64,000 nucleotides of DNA. It comes from Anaerolineaceae bacterium. GTDB taxonomy: Bacteria; Chloroflexota; Anaerolineae; Anaerolineales; Anaerolineaceae. Position 1 is the stretch's first letter, and the number at the start of each line of letters is the position of its first letter. Positions 2,885 through 40,696 of the stretch are shown in pieces. The notes under the pieces are model-generated. The model was not told the DNA's origin and searched no databases. It saw only the letters and a list, made by a program, of their open reading frames with translations. Position numbers and translations under genes: made by a program. The stretch covers positions 17,310-81,309 of the forward strand of contig JBCFBG010000001.1 of the NCBI GenBank assembly GCA_038562515.1, in the 5' to 3' direction.

Positions 2885-2893
2885 GAGCAATTT

Positions 2894-8897: not shown

Positions 8898-8898
8898 A

Positions 8899-13917: not shown

Positions 13918-13990
13918 GGTGCCTGGAGGGGGTCGAACCCTCAACATCTTCATCCACAGTGAAGCACTCTGCCATTGAGCTACAGGCACC
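13918..13990 (-). tRNA. tRNA-His (GUG)
   Basis: Hand-folded cloverleaf. Anticodon arm CTTCA-CTGTGGA-TGAAG, T arm GAGGG-TTCGACC-CCCTC. Encoded G-1 pairs with C73. CCA is not encoded. Confidence 0.85.
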
Positions 13991-15315: not shown

Positions 15316-15399
15316 AGGAGTCCAACCTCGAGTTTTAATCAATAGTAGTATAACATGCGGGTATCGTGTAAAATTAATCATTCAAACGAGAACAGAGGA

Positions 15400-15777
15400 A
15401 TGATTATGAATATTGGTGAAATTGCCGTTATTGTCGAGGGAAAGATCCTAACTGAAGGTGTAAACACCAATCTGGAGGTCGGAGGAGCATTCACAGGGGA
15501 TTTAATGAGTGATGTTCTGGCAACGATCAAGCCCGAAGCGATATTAATCACCGGTCTGAACAACCCCCAGGTCATTCGTACAGCTTTAATTGCTGATGTC
15601 CGTATGGTCATCATCGCCAGGGGGAAGCACCCTTCAATAGAAATGGTTGAACTGGCAAGAAGCGAAGGCATGCCTTTAGTCAGCTCTCCATTGGGTTTGT
15701 TTGAGCTCTCTGCCCGGCTGGCTGAAAACAATATTGTCAGTTTTGAGCAAGAATTCGATTTATCAAAATATGATTAA
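15400..15777 (+). CDS. DRTGG domain protein
   Basis: About 125 aa with AGAGGA RBS. Typical DRTGG-domain stretch ILITGLNNPQVIRTALIADVRMVIIARG. Start is 15400 or 15406. Confidence 0.65.
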   Translation: MIMNIGEIAVIVEGKILTEGVNTNLEVGGAFTGDLMSDVLATIKPEAILITGLNNPQVIRTALIADVRMVIIARGKHPSIEMVELARSEGMPLVSSPLGLFELSARLAENNIVSFEQEFDLSKYD

Positions 15778-15790
15778 CCGGTAGAAGACT

Positions 15791-16774
15791 ATGAGCGGCC
15801 AGGGATTCCTATCAGATTCTTCCGCAGGCAGAATCACTCGGGTTGAAGAGCTTGCCTACGAGTTGACCATCGCTGAGGTGATGACCAGGAATCCCATTAC
15901 GCTTGATATTAATGCGAGCATGCGCGACGCGCTCGACCTGATCGGAAAAAACAAGATCTCCGGCGCTCCTGTAACAAGAGATGGCAAGTTGATCGGCATC
16001 CTTTCCACAGAAGATTTGATACGTTCCCTTCGGGATGGACGGATTGACAGAAAAGTCACAGTCTACATGACTCAGAATGTGATCACTGTCCACGAGTATG
16101 ACCAGGTTGTGGAAGCTTTAAAGATATTTGCCAAGACCAAGGTTGGTCGGCTCCCTGTAGTGGACATTAACAACAAGCTAATCGGAATTCTGACCAAAGG
16201 TGATATCTCCAATGGCGTGCTCAATGCCCTCCAACGGGATTTCGAGGCAGAAGAGCTGATACGATACCGTGCATCCCATCTCTTCGAGGACATCGTCTCT
16301 GACAGAACCAGTTTGATACTTCGTTACACGATCAAAAAGGATGACTTTTTGCATGGCGGTGCTGCTTCCAACCGCATTAAAAAAGCACTTTTACGATTAG
16401 GTGCCTCCAGCCAAATTGCCCGTAAGTGCGGTATCGCTGTTTACGAAGCAGAGATGAACCTCATTATCCACACTAACAATGGAGGATTCCTCAGGGTGGA
16501 GGTTGAAGAAAACAAAATCATTATGGAAGCTTACGATGACGGACCTGGCATCCCGGATATTGAAAAAGCTTTGACCCCCGGCTGGTCCACAGCAAGTTCG
16601 GAGGTTCGTAACAAGGGCTTTGGTGCTGGCATGGGTCTGGTGAACATCAATAACTGTGTCGACGAAATGATTATCAAATCATCCAAGGAAAGTGGGACAA
16701 ATTTATACATGATCATGGATCTCGACAAAGCATCCAAACAGGAATTAACAAATGGATCTACAAACAATAATTGA
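15791..16774 (+). CDS. tandem-CBS protein fused to a GHKL (RsbW/SpoIIAB-like) kinase/ATPase domain
   Basis: 327 aa. Two CBS repeats (AEVMTRNPITL.., MTQNVITV..). C-terminal EAEMNLIIHT, DDGPGIPD and GFGAGMGL resemble anti-sigma-type Ser kinases. Confidence 0.7.
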   Translation: MSGQGFLSDSSAGRITRVEELAYELTIAEVMTRNPITLDINASMRDALDLIGKNKISGAPVTRDGKLIGILSTEDLIRSLRDGRIDRKVTVYMTQNVITVHEYDQVVEALKIFAKTKVGRLPVVDINNKLIGILTKGDISNGVLNALQRDFEAEELIRYRASHLFEDIVSDRTSLILRYTIKKDDFLHGGAASNRIKKALLRLGASSQIARKCGIAVYEAEMNLIIHTNNGGFLRVEVEENKIIMEAYDDGPGIPDIEKALTPGWSTASSEVRNKGFGAGMGLVNINNCVDEMIIKSSKESGTNLYMIMDLDKASKQELTNGSTNNN

Positions 16775-17096
16775 AGCTCTCGATTTGACGCTTCTTACGG
16801 AAAAAAGAGATTTTTGTCATGCTCATATCGCTTCCGCCTATATGTCTGACTTGCTCAGTTGTGTCATGACTGGCGCAAAACCCCACAGCGTTTGGGTCAC
16901 ATTGATTGCTAACATAAATATTGTTGCTGTTGCCAGCCTGCTTGAGATCTCGGCAATCATTATCACCGAAGACGCACAGCCAAATCAGGATACGATAGAT
17001 CGCGCAAATATGGAAGGAATCGTCCTACTCTCTACGAAAGACAGTAGTTACAATGTAGCGGGGCACCTCTGGGATTTAGGAATTAAGGATCATTGA
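16752..17096 (+). CDS. DRTGG domain protein (second copy)
   Basis: 114 aa. Overlaps the preceding gene by 23 nt. MSDLLSCV....VWVTLIANINIVAVASL pattern resembles the 15400 gene. Confidence 0.6.
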   Translation: MDLQTIIEALDLTLLTEKRDFCHAHIASAYMSDLLSCVMTGAKPHSVWVTLIANINIVAVASLLEISAIIITEDAQPNQDTIDRANMEGIVLLSTKDSSYNVAGHLWDLGIKDH

Positions 17097-17099
17097 ACA

Positions 17100-17816
17100 A
17101 TGTCAATCCACCGAATGGAACTGCACGTTCATTCTGTACTTTCACCCTGTGCGAGCCTGGAGATGCTTCCCCCTTTTATCATTGAGAAAGCCTTGAATAC
17201 CGGGATAGATATCGTTGCCCTGACCGATCACAACAGCATTCTGAATGTGCAGGCTATGCTCGAAGCAGCCCAAGGAACCAGCGTCAAGATCATTCCCGGT
17301 ATCGAACTTGAGACAGCTGAAGAGATCCATGTGCTATGTCTGTTTGATACTCTTGCTCAACTTCAGGATTTTGGAAAAATCGTGGACAGTAACCTCCCTG
17401 ACTATAAGAACAATGATGAATTTTTTGGTTGCCAATTAGTGGTAGACAAAGATGGTGCTTTTATACGAAAAGAAGAACGCTTACTCCATACCGCCTCAAG
17501 ACTCTCAATTTTCCAAGCACAGAAGGAAGTACACAAATTGGGAGGATTGTTTATCCCAGCCCACGTAGAACGGGAAGAAAATGGGATGCTTCCACGCCTG
17601 GGCGGAATGCCACCAGAGCTAAATCTCTCAATCGTTGAAATTTCCAGTTACGAAAGCATCCCGTCCGTACGGAAAACATGGCCAGATCTAAAGACCATCC
17701 ACATTATCAAAAATGGAGACGCACACGACCTGGATGGAATGGTTGGGGCGACAATACTCGAAATTGACGAAATCACAATCGCGAACCTTGAACGGGCAAT
17801 ATTGGAACAAACCTAA
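17100..17816 (+). CDS. PHP-domain phosphoesterase
   Basis: 238 aa. MELHVHSVLSPCA and VALTDHNS metal-binding motifs of the PHP family. Confidence 0.75.
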   Translation: MSIHRMELHVHSVLSPCASLEMLPPFIIEKALNTGIDIVALTDHNSILNVQAMLEAAQGTSVKIIPGIELETAEEIHVLCLFDTLAQLQDFGKIVDSNLPDYKNNDEFFGCQLVVDKDGAFIRKEERLLHTASRLSIFQAQKEVHKLGGLFIPAHVEREENGMLPRLGGMPPELNLSIVEISSYESIPSVRKTWPDLKTIHIIKNGDAHDLDGMVGATILEIDEITIANLERAILEQT

Positions 17817-18169
17817 TTTGTTCCTGTCGACCTGAGCAATGCAGCAATCTGAGTTGTGATTCTCCATCAGGCAACTTATGGAATTTGTGATTGTCATGAA
17901 AGTAGCTATGTAATATACTTGGTTGTGTCACAACTTTCATAACAATTCCTGGCTGTTGAGATTCCATAAAGGACTTAAGCCGGTTGAAATCTATTCTTTC
18001 GTTTCACAAACTCTATCGTCCCGCCAGATCAAAGGATCTGTATTTTTCCCATGTCTATTGTACAAAGAAAACTACCCCCAACCATCCTACGGATTTTTGT
18101 CATATTCTGGGTTGACGTTTCGCCCAAATTAAATCGATTTGATCAGCCAAGCTATCAACGGGAGAATTT

Positions 18170-18667
18170 ATGGACAATGCAAACAACCAACAAAAATCTA
18201 CTTATGAACATCCGGGAGCAATTCAGGAAATTCGCGATATTGTCCTGGAAACCGGACAAAGCAAAGATGCCCTCATCGCGGTCCTAAAGAAAGTAGCTGA
18301 CCGCTTCGGGTACATCTCAAACGCCGCCGTCCAGGAGATTAGTCGTCAGACTTCCATTTCAGCAGGCGATATTTTCTCTGTGGCAACATTTTACCGAATG
18401 CTGCCCACCACTCAACGCGGTCGGCATGTTATCGAATTTTGCGAAAGTCTTCCTTGTCACGTTGTGGGAGGACGCGAGTTATATCGTGCTTTAGTAGAAC
18501 AGCTTGGCGTGCAACCAGGAGAAACTAGTGCTGATGGCAGGTTTACGCTGCTTACCACCAGTTGCCTGGGAGTTTGCGAAGTTGGTCCCGTCCTTTCGAT
18601 CGACAACAATATCCACGGAAATCTCAGTGCTGAAACCCTGCCTGAAATTCTCCAAAAGTACGAATAG
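18170..18667 (+). CDS. NuoE-like 2Fe-2S flavoprotein small subunit (pair 1)
   Basis: 165 aa. CESLPC...CLGVCEVGP is the thioredoxin-like 2Fe-2S motif of NuoE/HydC/FdsG. Confidence 0.85.
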   Translation: MDNANNQQKSTYEHPGAIQEIRDIVLETGQSKDALIAVLKKVADRFGYISNAAVQEISRQTSISAGDIFSVATFYRMLPTTQRGRHVIEFCESLPCHVVGGRELYRALVEQLGVQPGETSADGRFTLLTTSCLGVCEVGPVLSIDNNIHGNLSAETLPEILQKYE

Positions 18668-18675
18668 GAGCTCTG

Positions 18676-20295
18676 ATGAAAAAGTTTCGGTCAATGGTTT
18701 TAATATCTAACGGCGAATCGAGCAAATCGAAAGGTTCTGAAGCCGTAATTGATGCCTTTCATCAGGCGATTGAGAAATATGACCTCGGTACTGAAGTCTA
18801 TGTGACCACCATTCCAGATTCAGTTAGCCAAAAAACACAACCCCTGGTAATTGTTTACCCGGAGGCTGTGGCATATGGTCCTGTACTCGAAGAAAATGTT
18901 GATTTCCTGGTCTCCGAGCACCTCTATAAAGGGCGGGTCGCGGAAACCTTGAAAATCAGTGACCCTTTCGAAATGAAGCGAATCTCCTGGTTGCTTCAAC
19001 GCAGCGGCACCATGCCAGCCGAAAACCGAATTGTTCTTGAGTATGTGGGCGTTATTGATCCCAACAGCATCAATGATTTTCTGACCCATGATGGTGGACA
19101 AGCATTTGCGACTGCCATGGAAATGGAGCCTCAGGCAATCATTGACACCATCAAAAAATCGGGGCTGCGTGGACGCGGTGGAGCAGGTTTTCCGACAGGC
19201 ATCAAATGGCAGGCTGTGAGGGATGCTCCTGGAGATAAGAAATACGTTGTCTGCAATGCCGATGAAAGCGAACCGGGCACCTTCAAAGATAGGGTCATTT
19301 TGGAGGGTAACCCCTTCTCCATGATCGAGGCCATGTTGATTGCGGGGTATGCCTGTGGAGCAGACGAAGGCTACATTTATATCCGGGGTGAATACATCGA
19401 CGCCCTTGAAAAAATAACCAACGCCCTCCAGGCTGCCAAAGAATTCGGCGTTCTGGGGAAAAACATTCTCAACACCGGCTTCAACTTCGACATCCATGTC
19501 CACTCAGGGGCTGGGGCTTACATTTGCGGCGAAGAGACTGCGCTGCTCGCGTCGATTGAAGGAAAACGAGGTGAACCCCGTTCAAAACCACCTTATCCAA
19601 CCACCAACGGGCTTTGGGGCAAACCAACATTAATTAACAATGTTGAAACACTCGGTAATATTCCGCCAATAATTCAAAATGGGGCGGATTGGTTCCGCGC
19701 ACAGGGAATGCCGTCCAGTCCAGGCACGAAGGTGTACACCATCCTGGGAAACGTAAACAAAACCGGTCTAATGGAAGTGCCCATGGGCATTACCTTGCGG
19801 GAAGTGATTGGGATCTATGGAAAAGGAATGAAGAGCGGGACCTTTAAATTCGCTCAAACGGGCGGCTCCAGTGGATCGATCATCCCTGCTATCCTGCAAG
19901 ACACACCCATGGACTTCGATTCCTACCGCAACGTTGGTGTCGCTCTGGGATCAGGCGCGCTGTTGATTTGCGATGACAGTAACTGTATCGTTGATTGTGT
20001 GCGGGTGCTGATGAAGTTTTTCAAAGTGGAGTCTTGTGGGAAGTGCGTGCCATGTCGTATTGGAACTGAACAAGCACTCGAAATAATGACAACCATTTCT
20101 GAAGGAAAAGGAACCATGGAGCAATTAGAACAGTTGGAATGGCTTCGGGCTGGCATGGAACAATTATCAAATTGCGGTCTGGGTCAAACTGCTGGAACGC
20201 CAATCAAAAACATGCTCGATCATTTTCGAGCTGAAGTGGAAGCCCATATAAAATTGGGCGTCTGTCCAGCTGGAGTATGCTCGATGGGAAAGTAA
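18676..20295 (+). CDS. NuoF-like FMN/NAD(H)-binding 4Fe-4S subunit (pair 1, no C-terminal ferredoxin domain)
   Basis: 539 aa. Motifs GRGGAGFPTGIKW, NADESEPGTFKDR, CGKCVPCRIGT...C. Cys-free N-terminal Trx-like extension. Confidence 0.9.
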   Translation: MKKFRSMVLISNGESSKSKGSEAVIDAFHQAIEKYDLGTEVYVTTIPDSVSQKTQPLVIVYPEAVAYGPVLEENVDFLVSEHLYKGRVAETLKISDPFEMKRISWLLQRSGTMPAENRIVLEYVGVIDPNSINDFLTHDGGQAFATAMEMEPQAIIDTIKKSGLRGRGGAGFPTGIKWQAVRDAPGDKKYVVCNADESEPGTFKDRVILEGNPFSMIEAMLIAGYACGADEGYIYIRGEYIDALEKITNALQAAKEFGVLGKNILNTGFNFDIHVHSGAGAYICGEETALLASIEGKRGEPRSKPPYPTTNGLWGKPTLINNVETLGNIPPIIQNGADWFRAQGMPSSPGTKVYTILGNVNKTGLMEVPMGITLREVIGIYGKGMKSGTFKFAQTGGSSGSIIPAILQDTPMDFDSYRNVGVALGSGALLICDDSNCIVDCVRVLMKFFKVESCGKCVPCRIGTEQALEIMTTISEGKGTMEQLEQLEWLRAGMEQLSNCGLGQTAGTPIKNMLDHFRAEVEAHIKLGVCPAGVCSMGK

Positions 20296-20363
20296 GTTAA
20301 GCGACCAGGAGTTTCAAAAAACATCGAGATAGCGTAATTTATTGAATACAATTTGTAATTTCG

Positions 20364-20392
20364 TTGACCAATATTGGGTTCAAGGTTACACT
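20364..20392 (+). promoter_or_regulatory. putative sigma70-type promoter of the second NuoE..FdhA operon
   Basis: TTGACC (20364-20369), 17-nt spacer, TACACT (20387-20392). Confidence 0.4.
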
Positions 20393-20394
20393 TA

Positions 20395-20412
20395 TTGTAA
20401 ATAATTTCACAA
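20395..20412 (+). promoter_or_regulatory. candidate Rex (redox-sensing repressor) operator
   Basis: TTGTAAATAATTTCACAA matches the Rex consensus TTGTGAA-N4-TTCACAA with one mismatch. It lies just downstream of the putative -10. Confidence 0.45.
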
Positions 20413-20449
20413 AGTAAGATCATGATTCTTACAAGGAGAAAAAACGACT

Positions 20450-20962
20450 ATGACGAGTACAACCCAGCCTATTGACCCACTTTACAACCCAAAACTGAGG
20501 CCAATTATCGACAAAATCATCGAGGATAACAGCGACCTCGACGGTGGACTTATGGTTGTTCTAAACAGCTTACAATCCAAAATTGGTTACCTTTCGGTTC
20601 CAATGCAAGAGTATGTTGCAGAACGCCTCAGCATCCCGGTCAGTAAAGTGCATGGCGTGGTTTCCTTTTACTCTTTCTTTACCACGGTTCCCCGCGGTAA
20701 ACATGTCATCAAGTTCTGTATTGGTACCGCTTGTTATGTTGGCGGTATCACCCAGATGCTTGACAAAGCCAAGCAAATGCTGGGGATCGGACCTGGTCAA
20801 ACTACCAGTGACGGTATGATCACCCTGGAAGTTTGCCGATGTGTTGGCGCTTGTAGCCAGGCACCCGTCGTTGTCGTTGACGAAGTCAATAACGGTCATA
20901 TGAAACCGACCAAGTTCACCAAAATCATCGAAAAAGTCCTTAGCGATGAGGCAGCAGCTTGA
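20450..20962 (+). CDS. NuoE/HydC/HndA-like 2Fe-2S subunit (pair 2)
   Basis: 170 aa with AAGGAGA RBS. Cys motifs CIGTAC...CVGACSQAP. Confidence 0.85.
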   Translation: MTSTTQPIDPLYNPKLRPIIDKIIEDNSDLDGGLMVVLNSLQSKIGYLSVPMQEYVAERLSIPVSKVHGVVSFYSFFTTVPRGKHVIKFCIGTACYVGGITQMLDKAKQMLGIGPGQTTSDGMITLEVCRCVGACSQAPVVVVDEVNNGHMKPTKFTKIIEKVLSDEAAA

Positions 20963-21537
20963 GAGAACTTGCCCTTCACATTCTGGATATCGCTGAAAAC
21001 GGCATTTCTGCCGGCGCAAGCCGGATTGAAATTCTGGTAAAGCAAGATAGCCTGAATGATGAGTTGTGGATTTCCGTGAAAGATAACGGTAAAGGTATGG
21101 ACAAAGAATTCCTTGCCAAAGTAATGAATCCTTTCGTCACCAGTCGCACCACCCGAAAAGTGGGACTGGGTATTCCATTGCTGAAACAGGCAGCAGAAGC
21201 TTGTAATGGCGGAATGACCATGATCTCCGAACCAGGAAAGGGCACAGAACTGACAGTGAAATTCCAGGATAGCCACATTGACCGCATGCCGTTGGGTAAC
21301 CTGGCAGACACCTTCTTAAGCCTGCTTTTGGGGACACCGGATGTAAACTGGGTGCTCGATTACCAGGTTAACGACCGGGTCTTCCATTTTGACGACAGCG
21401 AAGTTAAACAAGTGCTTGATGGAATGTCACTAACAGATTATCGAGTGATTGAGTATCTCACCAATACCATTCAAAACGGTATTAATGAATTAAATGAAAA
21501 TGCATTCAAACAAGGAGTGAATCATGCCCACAATTAA
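20959..21537 (+). CDS. single-domain GHKL ATPase (histidine-kinase-like ATPase)
   Basis: 192 aa. Motifs HILDIAENG, VKDNGKGM, GLGIPLL, GKGTEL. Its position between NuoE and the small ferredoxin matches HydABC-type clusters. Confidence 0.75.
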   Translation: MRELALHILDIAENGISAGASRIEILVKQDSLNDELWISVKDNGKGMDKEFLAKVMNPFVTSRTTRKVGLGIPLLKQAAEACNGGMTMISEPGKGTELTVKFQDSHIDRMPLGNLADTFLSLLLGTPDVNWVLDYQVNDRVFHFDDSEVKQVLDGMSLTDYRVIEYLTNTIQNGINELNENAFKQGVNHAHN

Positions 21538-21892
21538 TTCTATTGAAGACCTAAAAAGACTGCGCGAAGAAGCCCAAAAAATTAAAGAAATGCGTGACCA
21601 AACTGGCAAGACCCAGATCGTGGTTGGCATGGGTACCATTGGGATTGCTGCTGGTGCCCGCGAGACCTTGAAAGCCATCCTCACCGTGATTGAGGAAAAG
21701 AACCTGCCCGATGTCGTCTTGCGTCAGACCGGGAACCTCGGTCTCAGCGGACAGGACCCAGTTGTGAAAGTGATGCTTCCAAACCAGGATGAAGTAATCT
21801 ATGTAAAAGTCAATCCTGACATCGCGCGCAAAATTATGCAAGAGCATGTTATCGGTGGCAAAGTGGTCACTGATTATGTAATTAACGAGTAA
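21524..21892 (+). CDS. HndB / thioredoxin-like ferredoxin homologue lacking all cysteines
   Basis: 122 aa. Has GMGTIGIAAGA and QTGNLGLSGQDP where homologues have C-containing GTCGIAAGA / TGCxGxCxxxP. No Cys residue anywhere in the ORF. Confidence 0.7.
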   Translation: MPTINSIEDLKRLREEAQKIKEMRDQTGKTQIVVGMGTIGIAAGARETLKAILTVIEEKNLPDVVLRQTGNLGLSGQDPVVKVMLPNQDEVIYVKVNPDIARKIMQEHVIGGKVVTDYVINE

Positions 21893-21925
21893 AAAATATA
21901 GAAAGGTAAGAAAAGAGAATCCAAT

Positions 21926-23710
21926 ATGGCATATTATCGATCAACGATTCTTGTTTCGATGGATCCAATCTGTGTCGAGAAAGGCGCTCTCCAGATCAAA
22001 GAGCAGATTATCGAAGAGTTGAAACTGCAAAAAATCCTGGATGAAGTCGAAATTCTTGATAGTCCTCGAATTGGTGACCCCGAAACTGAAGGACCAGACA
22101 TTCTGGTTTATCCGGAAGGTAGCCACTACATCAGCCTGACACCTGAGAGCGTTCGCCCATTGGTAGTCGAACACTTCATCAAGGGACGTGAACTTGCGCA
22201 ATATAGTGCAAAAATGCGTGACCTCATGGATGAGGAGATCCGGGAACCTAAAGACAAAGAGGTGCGCATCATCCTGGAGAACATTGGCAAAATTGATCCC
22301 CGAAATATTGAGGATTATATTGCTACTGATGGTTACGCAGCTCTGGCAAAAGTCCTGACTGAGATGACCCCTGAAGATGTTATCCAGACTGTTCTGGATT
22401 CCAAATTACGAGGTCGTGGTGGCGCTGGTTTTCCAACTGGTTTGAAATGGAAATTTGCACGCCAGGCTCAAGGATCTCCAAAATTCATGGTCTGTAACGC
22501 AGACGAGGGAGACCCCGGCGCGTTTATGAATCGTAAAGTTTTGGAAGGCGACCCTCACTCGGTTATCGAAGGTATGGCTATCGGCGCTTATGCTGTTGGT
22601 TCCACACAAGGATACGTTTACTGTCGCGCGGAATATCCGATCGCGGTAAGTACGTTGAACATCGCCATTAAACAGGCGAAGGAATATGGTCTACTTGGTA
22701 AAAACATTCTGGGCACGGATTTTTCCTTCGATTTGGAAGTTCGTATGGGTGCAGGGGCTTTTGTGTGTGGTGAAGAAACTGCATTGATCGCCTCGATCGA
22801 AGGCAGTCGTGGTGAACCCCGCGTCCGCCCGCCATTCCCTGCCAGCAAGGGTCTTTGGGGCAAGCCTACCAATATTAACAATGTTGAAACTTATGCCAAT
22901 GTTCCAAAAATCATTCATCGTGGGTTGGAATGGTACACCAGCATGGGTTCTGAGAAGAGCAAGGGCACAAAAACCTTTGCGCTTGCAGGCGATGTTGCCC
23001 ATACCGGTCTGATTGAAGTGCCCTTTGGTATGACCTTACGCGAGATCATTTACGATATTGGTGGTGGCATCAAGAACGGTAAGGGATACAAAGCAGTCCA
23101 GACTGGCGGTCCCATGGGTGGCTGTTTACCTTCACAGTATCTTGATCTGGAAGTTGACTACGAAACACTGGGTGCTGCTGGCTCGATCATGGGCTCTGGT
23201 GGCATGATCGTCATGGATGAAGACACTTGCATGGTCGACATTGCCCGCTTCTTCATGGAATTTACGCAAGATGAGTCCTGCGGTAAATGTGTGCCCTGTC
23301 GCATTGGCACCCGGCAAATCCTTGAGATCCTCGAACGCATCTGCGCTGGTGAAGGGGTCCCAGGAGATATTGAAGAACTGCAGACACTCTGCGATGTGAT
23401 CAAGAAAAACAGTCTATGTGGTCTTGGTCAGGGCGCTCCTAATCCTGTGGTTTCCACACTTACACATTTCATGGACGAATATAAAGCCCATATTTATGAA
23501 AAACGCTGCCCTGCAAAGGTCTGTCGAAACCTGATCAAATACCACATCTCTGAAGAAAAATGCACTGGTTGTACTGTCTGTGCCCGAAACTGCCCGGTTA
23601 GTGCAATCACAGGTGAACGCAAGCTTACACACGTCATCAATCAAGATATCTGCATACGTTGCGGCATTTGCCAGCAGGTCTGTAATTTTGACGCTGTAGA
23701 GGTCAATTAG
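21926..23710 (+). CDS. HydB/HndC-type NuoF-like subunit with C-terminal 2x[4Fe-4S] domain (pair 2)
   Basis: 594 aa. Motifs GRGGAGFPTGLKW, NADEGDPGAF, CGKCVPCRIGT. C-terminal CTGCTVCARNCP and CIRCGICQQVC. Confidence 0.9.
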   Translation: MAYYRSTILVSMDPICVEKGALQIKEQIIEELKLQKILDEVEILDSPRIGDPETEGPDILVYPEGSHYISLTPESVRPLVVEHFIKGRELAQYSAKMRDLMDEEIREPKDKEVRIILENIGKIDPRNIEDYIATDGYAALAKVLTEMTPEDVIQTVLDSKLRGRGGAGFPTGLKWKFARQAQGSPKFMVCNADEGDPGAFMNRKVLEGDPHSVIEGMAIGAYAVGSTQGYVYCRAEYPIAVSTLNIAIKQAKEYGLLGKNILGTDFSFDLEVRMGAGAFVCGEETALIASIEGSRGEPRVRPPFPASKGLWGKPTNINNVETYANVPKIIHRGLEWYTSMGSEKSKGTKTFALAGDVAHTGLIEVPFGMTLREIIYDIGGGIKNGKGYKAVQTGGPMGGCLPSQYLDLEVDYETLGAAGSIMGSGGMIVMDEDTCMVDIARFFMEFTQDESCGKCVPCRIGTRQILEILERICAGEGVPGDIEELQTLCDVIKKNSLCGLGQGAPNPVVSTLTHFMDEYKAHIYEKRCPAKVCRNLIKYHISEEKCTGCTVCARNCPVSAITGERKLTHVINQDICIRCGICQQVCNFDAVEVN

Positions 23711-23740
23711 TTGAAAAATAATTTAGAAGAGGAAAAGAAA

Positions 23741-24580
23741 ATGGCAGAACCTATCGTTTCAGTTGATGATCTAACCCCGGCAGAAGTTGCTGCCAAGGCA
23801 GTGAATGTAGGCGTAAAGAAAGCCAGTTTGGAATTTTGGCCAATGTTTTTGCTTGCTCTTTACGGCGGCGCCTTCATTGCTTTTGGCGCTATCCTTGCCA
23901 CAACTGTAGGAACAAACGGAGCAGAATTCCCATTTGGTTTGAATTCACTGCTAAAAGGTTTGATCTTTACCGTTGGACTTGTACTGGTAATCGTAGCAGG
24001 CGCAGAACTTTTCACAGGCAACAATTTGATGATAATTGCTTTGCTGAGCAAGAAAATTACTCTGAAGCAAATGCTTCGGAATTGGGGTGTTGTTTACCTG
24101 GGCAACTTCGTCGGTTCAGTGATTGTTGCTGCTATCATGCTCCTGGCCAAACAATATACGTTTGCTGGTGGTGCAATCGGCAAAACAGTGCTGACAATTG
24201 CAAACGCAAAATCAGGACTGGGCTTGGGATCTGCCATCGGTTTAGGTATCATGTGCAATCTTCTGGTTTGTCTTGCGGTTTGGATGACCTTTTCCGCTCG
24301 CACCACTGCTGGGAAAATTGCTGCAATTATTCTTCCCATTTCCGCTTTCGTTGCCGCTGGGTTTGAACATAGCGTCGCAAACATGTACTTTATTCCAATG
24401 GGTCTTTTCGTTAAATGGTTTGACCCCAGCTTTACAGCCAACGCGGGTGAATTTGCAAATCTGTCGCTTGGTAATTTCTTCCTAAAGAATCTGATCCCAG
24501 TCACAATTGGCAATATCATTGGCGGCGCATTATTCATTGGTGCGGTCTATTGGATGATTTATCTCAAAAAAAGCAAGTAG
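23741..24580 (+). CDS. focA: formate/nitrite transporter family channel (FocA-like)
   Basis: FNT signatures AGAELFTGNN and GFEHSVANM; multi-pass membrane protein. ATG 23741 after GAGGAAAAG is preferred over TTG 23711. Confidence 0.8.
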   Translation: MAEPIVSVDDLTPAEVAAKAVNVGVKKASLEFWPMFLLALYGGAFIAFGAILATTVGTNGAEFPFGLNSLLKGLIFTVGLVLVIVAGAELFTGNNLMIIALLSKKITLKQMLRNWGVVYLGNFVGSVIVAAIMLLAKQYTFAGGAIGKTVLTIANAKSGLGLGSAIGLGIMCNLLVCLAVWMTFSARTTAGKIAAIILPISAFVAAGFEHSVANMYFIPMGLFVKWFDPSFTANAGEFANLSLGNFFLKNLIPVTIGNIIGGALFIGAVYWMIYLKKSK

Positions 24581-24646
24581 GTCTGAAGTAATTTTTGAAA
24601 GGAAAATGCGAAAAGTTGTGAGTTTTCACACCTAAAAGGAAATCAT

Positions 24647-27409
24647 ATGACAAAAATAACGATCAATGGCATTGAAATTGATGCGCAGCCTAATTGGACA
24701 ATTCTGCAAGCAGCACAGCACACTGGCATTACGATCCCAACACTGTGCAACCACAAAGATCTATCTCCTACTGGCGCATGCCGAATGTGCCTGGTGAATG
24801 TCAAAGGAGCGAGGGGATTGTTAACAGCCTGTACAACTCCCATCAACGAAGGGATGGAAGTTGAGACTGAGAACGCAGCCCTTACGTCTTCAAGGCAATT
24901 AGTACTTAAACTTTTATTGAGTGTCTATCACGATAATGGTTACAAACCCGATGAGACAGACAACGAACTGTTCAAACTGGCTCGCCAGTATGGTCTTGAC
25001 CCTCAAAAGTATATGTCGCCGAAACAACGCTACGAGATCGACCCCGATCCCAACCCATTCGTTTGGATTGACCGAAACAAGTGCATTTTATGTACTCGCT
25101 GCGTAAGAGCATGTTCCGAAGTTCAGGGTCGCTTTGTATGGGGCATCTCTGAAAGAGGTTTTGATGCCCACATTACAGCCGGTGTCGATGAAAATATGAT
25201 CGATGCCCGTTGTGAATCCTGTGGTGCTTGTGTGGCCTATTGCCCAACCGGCGCGCTTTCCTTGAAGCCAACCATCAATGTTGAAGCACCCGAGAAAAAA
25301 ATAACCACTACTTGTGCATATTGTGGTGTTGGTTGCCAATTTGATCTGAATGTCATCGATGACAAGGTCGTAAAAGTTACATCCAACCCACTTGCTCCCG
25401 CCAACGGAATGCACCTTTGTGTAAAAGGACGTTTCGGCTTCTCCTACATCCATCATGAGGATCGTCTCACCAAACCTTTGGTGCGGGATTACCTGCTGAA
25501 TGGTACCGAACGACCTTCAAAATCCGATCGCGGTAAGTGGGTTGAAACCGATTGGGATACAGCTCTCGATCTTGTTGCCAAAAAACTTGCCCAAACACGG
25601 GCCACCTTTGGTCCAGATAGCATCGGTGTGTTGTCTTCTGCCAAGTGCACCAATGAAGAAAACTACCTGATGAACAAATTTGCTCGCCAGGTGATTGGTA
25701 CGAATAACATTGACCACTGCGCGCGTCTCTGCCACGCCAGCACCGTCGCTGGTTTGGCGACTGCCCTTGGTTCAGGTGCTATGACCAACTCGATGCAGGA
25801 TGTTTACGAATCTGCTCAATCGATGCTCGTAATTGGTTCAAACACAACTGAACAGCATCCGGTATTTGGCGCCAAAATGCGTCAGGCTGTCTTGAATCGA
25901 AATGTCAAGTTGATTGTTGCGGACCCAAGAAAAATTGATCTTAGCGAATTTGCTACGATGCACCTTCAGCAAAAACCAGGCACCGATATTGCCTTGGTAA
26001 ATGGTTTGATGTACATCATCCTTGAAAAAGGCTATGAAAATAAGCAGTTCATCGAGGAACGTACTGAAAACTTTGAGACTTTGGTCGAAAACGTCAAGCA
26101 GTATCCCCCCGAGAAAGTCTCGCAGATCACAGGTATTCCAGTTGATCAACTTTATAAGGCAGTAGAAATCATTGTCAAGAACGCTCCCATGGCTGTTTTC
26201 TGGGCAATGGGCATCACCCAACATACCGTTGGTGTTCACAACGTATTTTCGCTTGCTGACTTACAAATGATGCTCGGAAACTTTGGCATTCCTGGCGGCG
26301 GAGTCAATCCGTTGCGTGGACAGAACAACGTACAGGGAGCCTGTGATATGGGCTGTCTTGTCAATGTTTACCCTGGCTATCAAGCGGTAACAGCTGAGGC
26401 TTCCCAACAAAAATTTGAAGCTGCCTGGGGCACCACTCTCTCGAATAAAATCGGAAAAACAGTTACCGAGATCATCCCGGAGGTACTTACAGGTGCCACC
26501 AAGGCGCTCTATATCCTTGGTGAAAACCCAATGATGACAGATCCCGATACCAACCACATCAGGCACTGCCTTGAAGAGTTGGATTTCATGATATTGCAGG
26601 AGATTTTTCCGTCTGAAACCTCAAAATTTGCCGATGTCCTTTTGCCTGGTGTCACTTTCGCTGAAAAAACCGGCACATTTACAAGTACTGAACGCCGAGT
26701 CCAAATGGTACGTGAGGCTATTACCCCCCGTGGTGAATCCAGAGTCGATTGGTCAATTACAGCCGACCTTGCAAAACGCGTCATTGCTGAAAGCGATCGC
26801 CAAATCAATGCAGCTCCTTATTCAGGTTGGGACTATGCTGATTCAGGTGAGATCATGGCAGAAGTGGCTGCTCTTACCCCCAGTTATGGTGGTATCTCGC
26901 ATGCCCGTTTGAATACTGGCGAAACACTTTGCTGGCCTTGCCCAGATTCAAATCATCCCGGCACACCCATCCTCCACATCGGCAAATTCACACGTGGCAA
27001 GGGCAATTTCATCCCAGCCATTCACCTGGATCCGTCTGAGCTTCCGAATGAGGAATACCCGGTCATGATGACCACCGGTCGTGTAATTTACCACTGGCAC
27101 AGTGGCGAGCAAACCCGTCGTGTTAAGGAACTGATGGAAATCTACGGCGAACCCCTTATTGAGGTTTCTCCCGAAGATGCTGTCCATCTTGGATTGAACG
27201 AGGAAGTCAATCATGTCAAATTGACATCACGCCGGGGTACCATTACTGCCCGGGCTTGGGTGACCAATCGCGTGCCCGAAGGTTTGATCTACGGTAACTT
27301 CCACTTCCCTGAAGCAAACGTAAACACCTTGACCAAAGCTGCTTTGGACCCAATTGCTAAAATTCCGGAGTACAAAGTTACAGCTGTCAGGATTGAAGCG
27401 GTAAGTTAA
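24647..27409 (+). CDS. fdhA: formate dehydrogenase catalytic subunit (bis-MGD, Cys-type) with NuoG-like N-terminal Fe-S domain
   Basis: 920 aa. N-terminal 2Fe-2S (C34, C45, C48, C62), two CxxCxxCxxxC motifs, CAYCGVGC MGD-domain cluster. Active site HCARLCH with TGC (Cys) at 25730-25732. No signal or Tat motif. Confidence 0.9.
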   Translation: MTKITINGIEIDAQPNWTILQAAQHTGITIPTLCNHKDLSPTGACRMCLVNVKGARGLLTACTTPINEGMEVETENAALTSSRQLVLKLLLSVYHDNGYKPDETDNELFKLARQYGLDPQKYMSPKQRYEIDPDPNPFVWIDRNKCILCTRCVRACSEVQGRFVWGISERGFDAHITAGVDENMIDARCESCGACVAYCPTGALSLKPTINVEAPEKKITTTCAYCGVGCQFDLNVIDDKVVKVTSNPLAPANGMHLCVKGRFGFSYIHHEDRLTKPLVRDYLLNGTERPSKSDRGKWVETDWDTALDLVAKKLAQTRATFGPDSIGVLSSAKCTNEENYLMNKFARQVIGTNNIDHCARLCHASTVAGLATALGSGAMTNSMQDVYESAQSMLVIGSNTTEQHPVFGAKMRQAVLNRNVKLIVADPRKIDLSEFATMHLQQKPGTDIALVNGLMYIILEKGYENKQFIEERTENFETLVENVKQYPPEKVSQITGIPVDQLYKAVEIIVKNAPMAVFWAMGITQHTVGVHNVFSLADLQMMLGNFGIPGGGVNPLRGQNNVQGACDMGCLVNVYPGYQAVTAEASQQKFEAAWGTTLSNKIGKTVTEIIPEVLTGATKALYILGENPMMTDPDTNHIRHCLEELDFMILQEIFPSETSKFADVLLPGVTFAEKTGTFTSTERRVQMVREAITPRGESRVDWSITADLAKRVIAESDRQINAAPYSGWDYADSGEIMAEVAALTPSYGGISHARLNTGETLCWPCPDSNHPGTPILHIGKFTRGKGNFIPAIHLDPSELPNEEYPVMMTTGRVIYHWHSGEQTRRVKELMEIYGEPLIEVSPEDAVHLGLNEEVNHVKLTSRRGTITARAWVTNRVPEGLIYGNFHFPEANVNTLTKAALDPIAKIPEYKVTAVRIEAVS

Positions 27410-27423: not shown

Positions 27424-27455
27424 AAAACCCCACTGTTTTCCAGTGGGGTTTTTTT
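27424..27455. terminator. bidirectional intrinsic terminator (fdhA / mobA)
   Basis: AAAA-CCCCACTG-TTTTC-CAGTGGGG-TTTTTTT. Overlaps the mobA stop codon. Confidence 0.85.
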
Positions 27456-28083
27456 AATTTTGCTTCGCGAGCTCAATCTTCTCGGCCAGTAAAAAATCTT
27501 CTTTGTTGTTGATATTGAAAAATGCCAGACCATCGGGATCCAACCTTCTGCACAAAGCCTCATCCATTTCCACGATGTTGACGGAAGGAAACCAGGAAAC
27601 CAGGCGTCGTTGGTCTGTCTCAATTGCTTGCAATATCGCTTTTTTACACGATTCCCGACGATAGACAGCATGGAGTGGTTCATAAAAGTTACTACTCAAC
27701 CTCGGGATTGCCACATCTGCACCGGTCTGGTCCAAAAGCCGCACGCCTTCATTTAAAATGGCTGCATTCACGAAGGGTAGATCACAAGCTACCACTGCCA
27801 CTAAATCACAGTTCGCCCTGTCCATTGCCGTATAAAGCCCTCCGATGGCACCAAGACCAATAATGCTATCTTTTACCACTTTGACATCCAAAAAAGATAG
27901 TTCATCAGGTTTGTTGCTTACGATTAGTATTTGCTGGGCAATTCTTTGGGTCCGCTCAAGCACTCTTTGGATCAAAGGGACTCCCATGAATGGCATGAGT
28001 ATCTTATTCTCGCCCATCCTGCTCGATTTCCCACCGGCTTGAATCACCAAACTGATTGAACTTTGATCGGTATTCGAATCCAT
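27454..28083 (-). CDS. mobA: molybdenum cofactor guanylyltransferase
   Basis: 209 aa. Motifs LVIQAGGKSSRMG and ACDLPF. Confidence 0.85.
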   Translation of the reverse strand: MDSNTDQSSISLVIQAGGKSSRMGENKILMPFMGVPLIQRVLERTQRIAQQILIVSNKPDELSFLDVKVVKDSIIGLGAIGGLYTAMDRANCDLVAVVACDLPFVNAAILNEGVRLLDQTGADVAIPRLSSNFYEPLHAVYRRESCKKAILQAIETDQRRLVSWFPSVNIVEMDEALCRRLDPDGLAFFNINNKEDFLLAEKIELAKQN

Positions 28084-28311: not shown

Positions 28312-29076
28312 ATGAAAGATCAAAAACCTTACCTTGAATTAGCAGTAAAAACTTATCTCAACGCAAACGGTTCGATAATTGACGAGAAGATTCAAGTCAT
28401 CAAAGAGCATATGCTCGAATTGTTTATCAATGATGAAAAATGGATGACGTTTATCTGTTCTCCTACCAACCTGGAAGAACTCGCTCTTGGTTTCCTTTGG
28501 AATGAAAACGTGATTTCTGACGTAAACCAGATTCAATCTTTACAATTAAGCTCAGATCGCTCAAGAATCGAGATATACCTCGACAAACAGGTGACAAAGC
28601 CGACCCATTTTCATCGAACTACTACTGGAATGGCACTTCCGCAATCCGAGATAGCCGCTCGAAAATTGAACGGTTTTTCATATCCAGCCAAAGATTTACA
28701 CCCGCTTTACAATCGATTTTCCGATGAACAAAAACTGCACGACCTTGTAGGTGGGTTTCATAGCGCGGGATTAAGCGATGGCAAAGACATCAGAATAATT
28801 ATGGAAGACTTAGGTCGTCACAACTGTTTGGATAAGTTGGCTGGTGCCTTGCTGAAAACAGAGCATTCCTTTATTCCAACCGTGTTAATGATTAGTGGTC
28901 GGATTAGTTCTGAAATGGTCTTAAAGAGTGTATTTATGGGAAGCCCTATCCTTGTTTCCAGGACCTCACCGACAGCTCTGGCAATCGAGATGGCTGAAAA
29001 GTCAGGTATTTGCCTTGTAGGCTATATGCGCTCAAAACAATTCCACATCTATTCTCACCCTGAATATTTGGTTTGA
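28312..29076 (+). CDS. fdhD: FdhD/FdsC-family formate dehydrogenase maturation protein
   Basis: 254 aa. Motifs TPxxLEELALGF, GGFHSAG, GRHNCLDKLAG. No CxxC loop is present (see findings). Confidence 0.8.
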   Translation: MKDQKPYLELAVKTYLNANGSIIDEKIQVIKEHMLELFINDEKWMTFICSPTNLEELALGFLWNENVISDVNQIQSLQLSSDRSRIEIYLDKQVTKPTHFHRTTTGMALPQSEIAARKLNGFSYPAKDLHPLYNRFSDEQKLHDLVGGFHSAGLSDGKDIRIIMEDLGRHNCLDKLAGALLKTEHSFIPTVLMISGRISSEMVLKSVFMGSPILVSRTSPTALAIEMAEKSGICLVGYMRSKQFHIYSHPEYLV

Positions 29077-29135
29077 CACTTTTCGATTGCGCTTCGCTGC
29101 CAGTTGCCCTTCATTACAGAGGGTATAATTTCGTT

Positions 29136-29510
29136 ATGCATGAATTAGCAGTCACAGAAAGTCTTCTGGAAATTGTGATCCAATTTGCTGAGGAAAACCA
29201 GGCTCAAGTAGTGACCGATGTTGCACTATCTATTGGAGCACTCTCGTCGATCATCGATGATTCCGTTCAGTTCTATTGGGACCACATCAGCAAGGATACT
29301 GTGGCAGAAAAGGCAACCCTCCATTTCAATCGCATCCCTGCAACCTTGCTTTGCCTGGATTGCAGCACTGAATTCACACTTGAAGACGAACTGATGCCCT
29401 GTCCAAACTGCAATAGTATCAACCTGAATATCGTCGCCGGAGAAGAATTCCAAGTAGACTACATTGAAATTCAAAAAATGGAAGATGGCAAGCATGAAAC
29501 AACGAGTTGA
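29136..29510 (+). CDS. hypA: hydrogenase nickel insertion protein HypA
   Basis: MHELAVTESLL N-terminus; Zn site CLDC...CPNC. The ORF-track TTG 29073 extension is judged unlikely. Confidence 0.85.
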   Translation: MHELAVTESLLEIVIQFAEENQAQVVTDVALSIGALSSIIDDSVQFYWDHISKDTVAEKATLHFNRIPATLLCLDCSTEFTLEDELMPCPNCNSINLNIVAGEEFQVDYIEIQKMEDGKHETTS

Positions 29511-30159
29511 AATAGTCAAAAGCATTTTAGATTCCAACGAACAACTCGCGGTACAAAACCAGAAGAAACTGGATGACCACCATGTCTTTGCCATCAATGT
29601 TATGGCATCACCAGGTGCAGGGAAGACCACCTTTATCCTTCAAACGATTGCCAAACTGCCTAAGAATCTGCGCCTGTGCGTGATCGAAGGCGATACCGCA
29701 CCTGTCACAATTGACGCAGACAAAATCACAGCTGCTGGCATGCCGGCTGTCCAGATCAACACCGGTGGTGACTGCCACCTCGACGCAAATATGGTCGGTC
29801 TGGCTCTCAAAGAACTTGACCTTGATGAAATTGATCTGCTCCTGATCGAAAACGTTGGCAACCTGATTTGCCCTGCAGGCTTTGCGCTGGGTAATCATGC
29901 TAATATTCTGATTGCCTCAGTTCCCGAAGGTGACGATAAGCCCTATAAATATCCAAACATTTATCGTCATCTTGATGTTCTCATTATCAACAAAACCGAT
30001 CTTTTACCCTATCTCGACTTTCGGATGGATTATTTTCGCGAAGGCGTAGAGATGCTGAATCCAGGCTTAAAGACTTTCGCAGTCAGCTCAAAAACCGGCG
30101 AGGGCTTTGAGAATTGGATCAAATGGCTGGAAGATAAAGTCAGATCCAACCGGGCATAA
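29494..30159 (+). CDS. hypB: hydrogenase nickel incorporation GTPase HypB
   Basis: P-loop ASPGAGKTT, ENVGNLICPA, NKTDL. Start is 29494 (or 29485), overlapping the hypA end. Confidence 0.9.
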   Translation: MKQRVEIVKSILDSNEQLAVQNQKKLDDHHVFAINVMASPGAGKTTFILQTIAKLPKNLRLCVIEGDTAPVTIDADKITAAGMPAVQINTGGDCHLDANMVGLALKELDLDEIDLLLIENVGNLICPAGFALGNHANILIASVPEGDDKPYKYPNIYRHLDVLIINKTDLLPYLDFRMDYFREGVEMLNPGLKTFAVSSKTGEGFENWIKWLEDKVRSNRA

Positions 30160-32457: not shown

Positions 32458-32459
32458 TT

Positions 32460-33808: not shown

Positions 33809-33809
33809 C

Positions 33810-40694: not shown

Positions 40695-40696
40695 TG

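Follow-up and report, generated by a model that had tools for sequence, protein, structure and literature searches.

The locus considered here lies in a 64,000-nt window, a stretch of a 115-kb Anaerolineaceae contig from a metagenome-assembled genome, and centres on a gene for a formate dehydrogenase (FDH), FdhA, that is preceded by two different pairs of NuoE- and NuoF-type genes, NuoE1/NuoF1 (pair 1) and NuoE2/NuoF2 (pair 2). Coordinates are positions in this window, with the strand given for each feature (Table 1), and an exact-sequence look-up identifies the proteins of the locus as NCBI MEL7636148-58. An open reading frame (ORF) listing and Pfam searches bear out a preliminary description of this DNA in that twelve co-directional plus-strand ORFs are present with the expected domains: four putative regulatory genes, pair 1, pair 2 with two small accessory genes between its members, a channel gene of the FNT family and FdhA. 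The gap between the PHP-domain gene and NuoE1 is 354 nt, and that between NuoF1 and NuoE2 is 154 nt.

Table 1. Features of the FdhA locus and its flanks in window coordinates
Feature	Position	Strand	Evidence and remarks
DRTGG-domain protein	15355..15777	+	PF07085 1.8e-9; first of a four-gene putative regulatory unit
2xCBS + GHKL (HATPase_c) protein	15791..16774	+	CBS 2.2e-30, HATPase_c_2 (Pfam)
Second, weak DRTGG protein	16752..17096	+	Pfam 25.0 bits, cut-off 25.2; syntenic in relatives
PHP-domain phosphoesterase	17100..17816	+	PF02811 6e-10
Promoter-like TTGTCA-17-TATACT	17891..17919	+	10/12 consensus positions; in the gap before NuoE1
NuoE1	18170..18667	+	PF01257 2.3e-41; NCBIfam NuoE NF005722 145 bits, cut-off 141
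NuoF1, non-bifurcating-type flavoprotein	18676..20295	+	539 aa; FMN, B1 [4Fe-4S], His/Cys 'B2/Zn' site
Promoter-like TTGACC-17-TACACT	20364..20392	+	9/12 consensus positions; in the gap before NuoE2
Rex-like operator TTGTAAATAATTTCACAA	20395..20412	+	One mismatch from consensus TTGTGAANNNNTTCACAA; 3 nt after the -10
NuoE2, BfuC/HydC equivalent	20450..20962	+	PF01257 2.7e-43; C1 [2Fe-2S] (Cys90, 95, 131, 135)
Stand-alone GHKL ATPase ('hisK')	20959..21537	+	192 aa; Pfam HATPase_c 1.8e-16
HydD/HndB-like protein	21524..21892	+	122 aa; thioredoxin-like fold family by profile
NuoF2, BfuB/HydB equivalent	21926..23710	+	594 aa; Complex1_51K, SLBB, NADH_4Fe-4S, Fer4 x2 (Pfam)
FNT (FocA-like) formate channel	23741..24580	+	PF01226 3e-80
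FdhA, Mo/W-bisPGD formate dehydrogenase with NuoG-like N-terminus	24647..27409	+	920 aa; TIGR01591 774 bits, cut-off 666
FdhA Cys362 codon	25730-25732		TGA counterparts among L035-L078
Intrinsic terminator	27424..27452	+	12-bp stem then T run; strongest terminator-like site in 15.0-28.5 kb
MobA-like NTP transferase	27454..28083	-	PF12804 2.4e-33; accompanies FdhA in relatives
FdhD, sulfurtransferase/chaperone for FDH	28312..29076	+	PF02634 2.4e-61
hypA, hypB, hypF, hypC, hypD, hypE	29073..34886	+	Pfam; [NiFe]-hydrogenase maturation set
HypC	32460-32720
Flx/Hdr-like redox cluster	50-3877	+	FrhB-like Fe-S, AsrA-like Fer4_22, AsrB-like NAD-binding/DHOD-B Fe-S, polyferredoxin; left window edge
T-box leader 5' of IleRS	13531-13753	-	113 bits
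tRNA-His	13917-13989	-	Beside HisRS
SufC, SufB, SufD operon	37990-41557	-	Fe-S assembly
P-type ATPase	48082-50346

Relatives were gathered by an FdhA-centred scan of GTDB species genomes, which gave 80 loci (designated L with a number), all from Chloroflexota and nearly all labelled Anaerolineae, with those of Ornatilinea apprima, Thermanaerothrix daxensis and Bellilinea caldifistulae among them. Their genes were annotated in BLASTP searches for which the proteins of the window and the L081 hydrogenase genes served as queries.

FdhA has the Pfam domains Fer2_4, Fer4_Nqo3, Molybdop_Fe4S4, Molybdopterin and Molydop_binding, and aligns over its full length with FdsA of Rhodobacter capsulatus (6tg9_A, 735 bits). 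Within its CARLCH motif, Cys362-His363 fall on the active-site Cys-His of FdsA. Judged by this alignment FdhA is a Cys-type, FdsA-like enzyme, and the alignment and the N-terminal domains agree with its first description as a Cys-type, NuoG-fused FDH. Of 82 relatives whose FdhA could be classified, 39 carry an in-frame TGA at exactly the active-site codon; these are presumably selenoproteins, the family being dimorphic for selenocysteine (Sec) and Cys, and the Cys form is that of the window and its closer relatives. The Cys map of the N-terminus provides ligands for one [2Fe-2S] and three [4Fe-4S] clusters.

Directly upstream of FdhA, as initially reported, an FNT channel gene is inserted between NuoF2 and FdhA inside the operon, on the evidence of Pfam and gene order. 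Its mechanical ORF begins at 23711, with translation probably starting from the ATG at 23741. The protein scores 242 bits on TIGR00790 (cut-off 232) and 274 bits on the FocA equivalog TIGR04060, below the cut-off of 290; on these profiles it is a FocA-type channel, with formate as the putative substrate. The channel gene lies immediately 5' of FdhA in 30 loci, including the window.

Pair 2 carries the cofactor sites of the flavin core of Bfu enzymes. NuoF2 has sites for FMN and the B1 [4Fe-4S] cluster, a B2 site with all five ligands (Cys435, Cys473, His522, Cys528 and Cys533) and two C-terminal [4Fe-4S] clusters (B3/B4), with every Cys ligand of B1, B3 and B4 present. Its best PDB match is HydB of the Acetomicrobium mobile [NiFe] hydrogenase (7t2r_B, 811 bits over the full length), by a small margin over the [FeFe] HydB of Acetobacterium woodii (791 bits), and FdsB proteins score 438 and 388 bits. 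The reading of pair 2 as HydCB-like with a C-terminal 2x[4Fe-4S] domain therefore holds. Its attribution to the HydABC/Hnd type of [FeFe] hydrogenase holds for the Bfu type and has to be revised for kinship, the nearest characterised relative being the [NiFe] HydABCSL enzyme.

The residues that discriminate bifurcating from non-bifurcating proteins were taken from Losey et al. (2020; PMC7311640) and Schut et al. (2022; PMC9304861). According to these studies a bifurcating BfuB is marked by A202 and M204 (A. mobile numbering), a Phe near the FMN, a GGPSG motif and the His/Cys B2 site, and non-bifurcating beta subunits by T/K, Y, no GGPSG and no extra Fe-S domains (PMC7311640). NuoF2 has the bifurcation-specific GAFM (A/M) and GAGAFVCGEE (Phe near FMN). 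Its motif states are uniform in all 45 NuoF2-type proteins of relatives, and the B1, B2, B3 and B4 ligands are kept in 42-45 of the 45. In some deeper-branching loci (L040, L042 and L045) the NuoF2-type ORFs are 1032-1041 aa long and apparently fused to a further domain; L040 has two NuoF2-type modules and no NuoF1-type module.

The accessory genes complete a likeness to A. mobile, since NuoE2, the GHKL ATPase, the 122-aa protein and NuoF2 are the same four gene types as hydC, hisK, hydD and hydB. The A. mobile NiFe-HydABCSL operon carries HisK, HydD and HydP genes whose products lie outside the holoenzyme (PMC8880783, PMC9304861). The 122-aa protein has no Pfam or NCBIfam match, and the profile of its family matches the N-terminal thioredoxin-like domain of BfuB (6.8e-21) and Aquifex Fd4 (1.8e-8). 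The name 'HndB-like' is thus apt for the fold family, but the idea of a small ferredoxin has to be given up: the window protein has no Cys at all and so cannot bind a cluster or act as a ferredoxin here. Three Cys are kept in 24 of 49 relatives, and 21 of 49 loci, with the window counted, have lost all three.

That the two NuoEF pairs differ in kind was noticed at the outset, and the residues agree, with bifurcating-type residues in pair 2 and non-bifurcating-type residues in pair 1 (identity is 30% between NuoE1 and NuoE2, and 45% between NuoF1 and NuoF2). NuoE1 has the [2Fe-2S] ligands Cys91, Cys96, Cys132 and Cys136. NuoF1 stops right after CPxxVC and so has no C-terminal Fer4 (B3/B4) domain; it also lacks the ligands of the N-terminal B5 cluster, while keeping the N-terminal thioredoxin-like domain and a B2 site of one His and three Cys. 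Its diagnostic motifs, EPGTFKDR (T/K), GAGAYICGEE (Tyr near FMN) and GGSSG, are in the same states in 54 of 54 NuoF1-type proteins of relatives. The description of pair 1 as minimal and FdsGB-like is not upheld: the thioredoxin-like domain is kept, and NuoF1 scores 544 bits with A. mobile HydB (residues 3-536) and 535 with A. woodii HydB, against 363 and 320 with FdsB proteins. NuoE1 likewise scores 114 bits on the NCBIfam FDH-gamma profile NF004638, below its cut-off of 198. By these scores and motifs NuoF1 is a BfuB derivative with a non-bifurcating signature. Caldicellulosiruptor saccharolyticus NfnABC bifurcates with Zn at both B2 and B5, and the minimal set is B1-FMN-C1 plus B3/B4 (PMC11829005). 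Judged by its predicted ligands, NuoE2/NuoF2 contains what is currently taken as the minimum for a bifurcating Bfu core, and NuoE1/NuoF1 does not.

A third type of NuoF accompanies a related Sec-type FdhA in other Chloroflexota (L049, L052, L057, L059, L060, L072, L074 and L075). It keeps three or four of the N-terminal-domain Cys and is without B2-site and B3/B4 ligands. The gene order at these loci, FdhD, NuoF, FdhA, is more FdsABG-like, and the FdhA of L075 retains a His-ligated [4Fe-4S] motif.

The genes from NuoE2 to FdhA look like one operon closed by a terminator, with successive spacings of -4, -14, 33, 30 and 66 nt. Promoter and terminator counts in the region as a whole show no excess over shuffled sequence, and only conserved promoter sites were taken as evidence. 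The promoter-like sequence first pointed out in the 154-nt gap qualifies, since its -35 and -10 are conserved in five diverged loci (the window, L011, L083, L081 and L082). The only conserved blocks in the gap among these five are TTGACC, TACACT and TTGTAAATAATTTCACAA, an 18-bp near-palindrome resembling the Rex operator consensus quoted in PMC6391272. No other one-mismatch match occurs in the 64 kb. The related loci, 1.45 Mb in all, contain 37 matches with at most two mismatches, 34 of them intergenic and 23 directly 5' of NuoE2, whatever the locus type (at 5755 in L011, 11705 in L083 and 2001 in L082, and in about 20 other loci). The pattern supports a putative control of the NuoE2 operon by Rex in response to NADH/NAD+. 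No molybdenum cofactor (Moco) or other riboswitch was found in the intergenic gaps, where a search with Rfam at E<=0.1 returned only a T-box and tRNA outside the cluster.

Pair 1 has a promoter-like site of its own, partly conserved in comparison with L011 and L083. A Rex-like box also precedes the upstream-type NuoE1 in L011, L083 and L081; the window lacks it because of a 5-nt indel there. In L081 a UPF0236-family transposase gene (7736-9142, minus strand) sits between the PHP gene and NuoE1, an insertion that implies independence of NuoE1-NuoF1 from read-through of the regulator genes.

The survey of gene neighbourhoods that had been proposed for relatives has now been made, and two pairs beside FdhA recur throughout the class, in differing order. 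Both pairs are present in 47 loci, the window and 46 relatives, all of them Anaerolineae. The layout is uncharacterised, as first thought, but it is not unique to this contig. In 43 of the 47 the regulators are followed by NuoE2-hisK-hydD-NuoF2 and then by NuoE1'-NuoF1'; 24 of these loci have FDH only and 19 have FDH together with a NuoG-like HydA, HydS, HydL and a protease, the protease gene standing immediately before FdhA in 17 of the 19. NuoE1-NuoF1 precedes NuoE2 in the other four, namely the window, L011 and L083, which have FDH, and L081, which has hydrogenase only. Altogether FDH is the only catalytic cassette in 27 loci, including the window, and hydrogenase the only one in L081, L085 and L087. 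In L025 the NuoE2 to NuoF2 genes are followed directly by FdhA, and there is no pair 1.

The most informative comparison is with the hydrogenase loci. In L081, HydL and the NuoG-like protein best match HydL (579 bits) and HydA (286 bits) of A. mobile. Between the regulators and NuoF2, L085 (GCA_964507335.1) and L087 (GCA_011620465.1) match the window in gene lengths and order, and L085 does so again from hypA onwards. Identity between L085 and the window is 92% for NuoF1, 94% for NuoE2, 91% for NuoF2, 91% for the HydD-like protein and 85% for HypF; for NuoE1 it is 85% in the sister lineage. Nucleotide homology between the window and L085 breaks off at 23709, where NuoF2 ends, and is found again from 29105, at hypA. 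Between these breakpoints the window has FNT, FdhA, MobA and FdhD, and L085 has a NuoG-like gene, HydS, HydL and a protease-FdhD fusion ORF; in L087 and L081, too, NuoF2 is followed by hydA-like, hydS and hydL genes in the FDH slot. The same orthologous dual flavin module therefore occurs with either cassette in sister lineages, and cassette replacement explains why hyp genes, which the hydrogenase-cassette relatives also have, lie downstream of an FDH. The locus looks like the FDH-cassette state of a redox supercluster that occurs across Anaerolineae with hydrogenase, FDH or both. The fusion ORF of L085 (11501-12745, 414 aa) joins a hydrogenase maturation protease (residues 2-157) to FdhD (166-414), so an FDH maturation factor is retained in a locus without FdhA. 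In the window, the MobA-like protein would make the guanine dinucleotide form of the cofactor, and its gene is part of the FDH cassette.

No hydrogenase was found in the window itself. A six-frame search of the whole 64 kb for the H-cluster motifs L1, L2 and L3 was empty, in keeping with the first impression that no ORF carries this domain, and no ORF of the 80 related loci has them. NiFe hydrogenase subunits, including HydS (Oxidored_q6), HydL (NiFeSe_Hases) and a NuoG-like HydA, are absent from the 64 kb, and a further 2 kb or so of left flank, taken from another assembly, has no hydrogenase gene. Three independent assemblies contain an identical NuoF2 with FNT and FdhA after it, and this adjacency is therefore not an assembly artefact.

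In 19 loci a single cluster contains the two catalytic modules together with the two pairs, and hyp and fdhD genes co-reside in both cassette states. These facts raise the question of whether the FDH and a NiFe hydrogenase join with both flavin modules in one large soluble complex like Hyt-Fdh of Clostridium autoethanogenum, which would interconvert formate, H2, NADH and ferredoxin and of which the window would encode a part. There is a precedent in FdhFeFe-Bfu (PMC9304861). Such a complex seems unlikely here, given the 27 loci with FDH only and the three with hydrogenase only, and given that neither the 64 kb nor the left flank holds a hydrogenase gene. In the solved structures of Bfu enzymes and FdsABG, moreover, each NuoG-type N-terminus binds, to our knowledge, one NuoEF unit.

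With the FDH-adjacent NuoF1' of the other lineages the window NuoF1 shares about 64% identity in every case, whatever the identity of FdhA (61-90%), and with NuoF1 of L081 it shares 71%. This constant identity suggested an ancient paralogue, an idea that was discarded because in a neighbour-joining tree the upstream-type NuoF1 proteins (window and L081) form a long-branch clade nested inside the Anaerolineaceae NuoF1' group. Non-synonymous divergence (dN) between the NuoE1/NuoF1 of L081 and the NuoE1'/NuoF1' of L001 is 0.43 and 0.27, compared with 0.05-0.18 for neighbouring genes. Pair 1 may have arisen either by relocation with accelerated change or by recent replacement by a paralogue.

The reading we prefer, and to which we give an even chance of being right, is that FdhA and NuoE2/NuoF2 form a Type 1 Fdh-Bfu enzyme, with pair 1 as an NADH-only module. 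FdhA would be a soluble, cytoplasmic formate dehydrogenase/CO2 reductase with a Cys-ligated Mo or W cofactor. It would be co-transcribed with the Bfu module (NuoE2, NuoF2, hisK and the HydD-like protein) and the FocA-type channel, from the promoter with the Rex-like, NADH-sensing operator to the strong terminator. Electrons would pass from the pterin through the three [4Fe-4S] clusters and the [2Fe-2S] cluster of FdhA to the B1-FMN-C1 site, and would there be split between NAD+ and, via B3/B4, ferredoxin. In a fermenter the reverse is more likely, with NADH and reduced ferredoxin together reducing CO2 to formate, which would leave through the FocA-like channel. Formate and H2 are among the products of cultured Anaerolineae (PMC5481317), which makes CO2 reduction as an electron sink the likely direction. 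NuoE1/NuoF1, with its own promoter region, would offer an NADH-only route, whether to this FdhA, in which case the cell could switch with formate level and redox state, or to another partner, such as a hydrogenase, with genes elsewhere in the genome. The choice of pair 2 as the FDH partner is favoured by the operon structure of the window and by the arrangement in L025. The earlier picture of a hydrogenase-less Bfu module wired to an FDH is to this extent retained, the module lying directly 5' of a Cys-type, NuoG-fused FDH, with the revisions already given on kinship, pair 1 and uniqueness.

Several observations weigh against this reading. Only one of the four ligands of the B5 [2Fe-2S] site is left in NuoF2 (Cys16), and Schut et al. 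(2022; PMC9304861) stated this N-terminal cluster of BfuB to be conserved in all Bfu enzymes. Arg occupies the Cys48 position in 44 of 45 Anaerolineae NuoF2 proteins, so that the loss is clade-wide and includes hydrogenase-holding loci; B5 is no longer deemed essential, because C. saccharolyticus NfnABC holds Zn there and yet bifurcates. The GGPSG motif is replaced by GGPMG, which matches at four of five positions. FdhA is without the His-ligated [4Fe-4S] cluster (HxxxCxxCx5C) that is found in FdsA. The motif is present in the NuoG-like HydA of relatives, and missing in 75 of 84 aligned N-terminal sequences (82 FdhA homologues and two reference sequences). In the Bfu classification this A3 cluster is needed when a separate catalytic subunit docks and not when the site lies in BfuA (PMC9304861). 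As for regulation, no rex gene is present in the window, and the Rex box is a consensus match only.

The loss of the B5 ligands, together with the Cys-free HydD-like protein, could also be taken to mean that pair 2 and its accessory genes are relics decaying after the loss of a hydrogenase, with only pair 1 and FdhA functional. We consider this very improbable. All the ORFs are intact, the B1-B4 ligands are conserved as described, and B5 is lost in the whole Anaerolineae NuoF2 clade, where hydrogenase loci are included. The ratio of non-synonymous to synonymous divergence (dN/dS), both for the window against L083 and within the FDH-only group, is 0.04 for NuoF2, 0.08 for NuoE2 and 0.10 for the HydD-like protein, and it is 0.03-0.17 for the cluster genes with an estimable dS, with a low dN (0.06-0.18) for all; dS is saturated (>=1 or undefined), a reservation for our reading too, so that the ratios are rough and used only as a qualitative sign of purifying selection. 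For the HydD-like protein, Cys loss combined with purifying selection implies a cluster-free role, structural or regulatory.

Gene order and kinship supply the other points against our reading. In 43 of the 47 loci pair 1' follows pair 2 and stands closer to FdhA, often with FNT-FdhA as its immediate 3' neighbour, and this adjacency favours pair 1 as the FDH partner. The closest characterised homologue of NuoF2 serves a NiFe hydrogenase, and the intact hyp genes suggest that one may be encoded elsewhere in the genome as a possible partner of pair 2. Each pair might then have its own enzyme: NuoE1/NuoF1 and FdhA would be a simple FdsABG-like, NAD+-dependent FDH, and pair 2 with hisK and hydD would belong to a hydrogenase whose hydA, hydS and hydL genes have been relocated. 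We regard this as possible but rather doubtful. It accords with the NADH-only signature of NuoF1, which is typical of FdsB-type enzymes, with the match of NuoF2 and its accessory genes to the A. mobile NiFe operon, with the direct succession of NuoF2 by hydA-like, hydS and hydL in L081, L085 and L087, and with the complete hypABFCDE set still in the window. However, a conserved promoter stands between pair 1 and FdhA in the window, the gaps that join FdhA to pair 2 are short, and in L025 pair 2 stands directly before FdhA with no pair 1. Where a NuoG-like gene and HydSL directly follow both pairs, pair 1' abuts these and not FdhA, and L081 and L085 keep pair 1 with no FdhA in the locus. The presence of both pairs in single-cassette loci fits either reading, because hyp in the window and fdhD in L085 hint at another enzyme elsewhere.

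A Type 1 Fdh-Bfu enzyme, to return to the reading we prefer, is not a new class. FDHs fused to BfuA were predicted in 2022, for instance in Carboxydothermus hydrogenoformans with BfuB clade 49 (Schut et al.; PMC9304861), and the locus would extend this known class; according to the same source, only Nfn-Bfu had been characterised among Type 1 non-hydrogenase enzymes. The locus resembles the predicted enzymes in its BfuC-like NuoE, in a BfuB with C-terminal 2x[4Fe-4S] and bifurcation-specific residues, in the fusion of a NuoG-like subunit to a Mo/W-bisPGD (bis-pyranopterin guanine dinucleotide) FDH domain, and in a BfuB neighbourhood that also contains the A. mobile NiFe-Bfu enzyme. It differs from them in the missing B5 ligands and His-ligated cluster, in the added non-bifurcating NuoEF pair and in-operon FocA channel, and in belonging to Chloroflexota rather than Firmicutes.

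With the NiFe-HydABCSL enzyme of A. mobile (PDB 7T2R; PMC8880783) the locus shares its best NuoF2 match and the hisK and hydD accessory genes, and the sister loci L081, L085 and L087 hold HydA-like, HydS and HydL genes followed by protease and hyp genes. The window itself has none of HydA, HydS and HydL, and has instead the cassette FNT, FdhA, MobA and FdhD; it also has the extra NuoE1/NuoF1, and its NuoF2 is without B5 ligands. FdsABG of R. capsulatus and Cupriavidus necator (PDB 6TGA, 6VW7) is like the locus in the full-length alignment and Cys-His site of FdhA, in an FdhD (FdsC-like) gene and in a NuoE/NuoF pair with an NADH-only signature (pair 1). It is unlike it in that NuoF1 is closer to HydB/BfuB, with the N-terminal thioredoxin-like domain and His/Cys site, that NuoE1 falls below the FDH-gamma cut-off, that FdhA has no His-ligated cluster and that no FdsD was identified in the locus.

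The only purified bifurcating FDH is HylABC-FdhF2 of Gottschalkia acidurici, a Type 3 Fdh-Bfu in which a BfuBC core likewise couples formate, NAD+ and ferredoxin; its FdhF2 (Sec, W) is separate from BfuA (HylA), whereas FdhA of the window is fused and of the Cys type. NuoF1, for its part, has all the beta-subunit features of the non-bifurcating [FeFe] hydrogenases Hyd1ABC of Syntrophomonas wolfei and HydAB of Syntrophus aciditrophicus (PMC7311640), but the catalytic partner in the window is not an [FeFe] hydrogenase, and NuoF1 keeps the His/Cys 'B2' site that is reported to be missing from non-bifurcating homologues (PMC9304861). A literature search found no biochemical characterisation of such a cluster, or of a Type 1 Fdh-Bfu after 2022, in line with the initial view that the arrangement is not a characterised one. 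Nor did it turn up a description of bifurcating and non-bifurcating modules encoded together, of a BfuB without B5, an FdhA without A3 or a HydD without Cys, or of the cassette exchange.

Of the surrounding genes, the four 5' of pair 1 are putatively regulatory. The real start of the first DRTGG protein is probably near 15406, the L083 orthologue being called at 123 aa. The 2xCBS-GHKL protein resembles an anti-sigma-type Ser/Thr kinase, with an spIIAB-like stretch in NCBIfam, and its gene is kept 5' of the cluster in most loci; a literature search on the DRTGG, CBS-GHKL and PHP set gave nothing usable. Further 5', on the opposite strand, are HisRS, tRNA-His and IleRS with its T-box leader. The Flx/Hdr-like cluster at the left window edge is preceded in another assembly (L084, 1-2293) by an MvhD/FlpD protein, a ferredoxin and a 422-aa protein, and neither stretch contains a hydrogenase subunit. 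On the other side the Suf operon lies near the Fe-S-rich cluster, and a P-type ATPase gene lies beyond it.

In anaerobic digesters and sediments, Anaerolineae rank with the most abundant fermenters. There are few accounts of how they dispose of reducing equivalents as formate or H2, and the genome papers found mention FDH only in passing. The locus and the supercluster to which it belongs would supply a natural, uncharacterised Type 1 bifurcating FDH, and since the full cluster is carried by the cultured B. caldifistulae, T. daxensis and O. apprima, the biochemistry can be tested. Bifurcating and non-bifurcating modules that stand side by side and derive from the same BfuB stock would help to establish which features let a Bfu enzyme bifurcate, and orthologous flavin modules (NuoF about 91% identical) beside either a NiFe hydrogenase or an FDH constitute a natural experiment. 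A wider reading, which we offer tentatively and think improbable rather than probable, is that the bifurcating BfuBC and the NADH-only NuoEF make up a dual flavin platform on which swappable hydrogenase and FDH cassettes dock. The same FdhA would assemble with either module, and Rex-sensed redox state and product partial pressure would shift the system between NADH-only and NADH-plus-ferredoxin operation. If this is true, the dual platform would be a thermodynamic gearbox for interspecies electron transfer by formate or H2.

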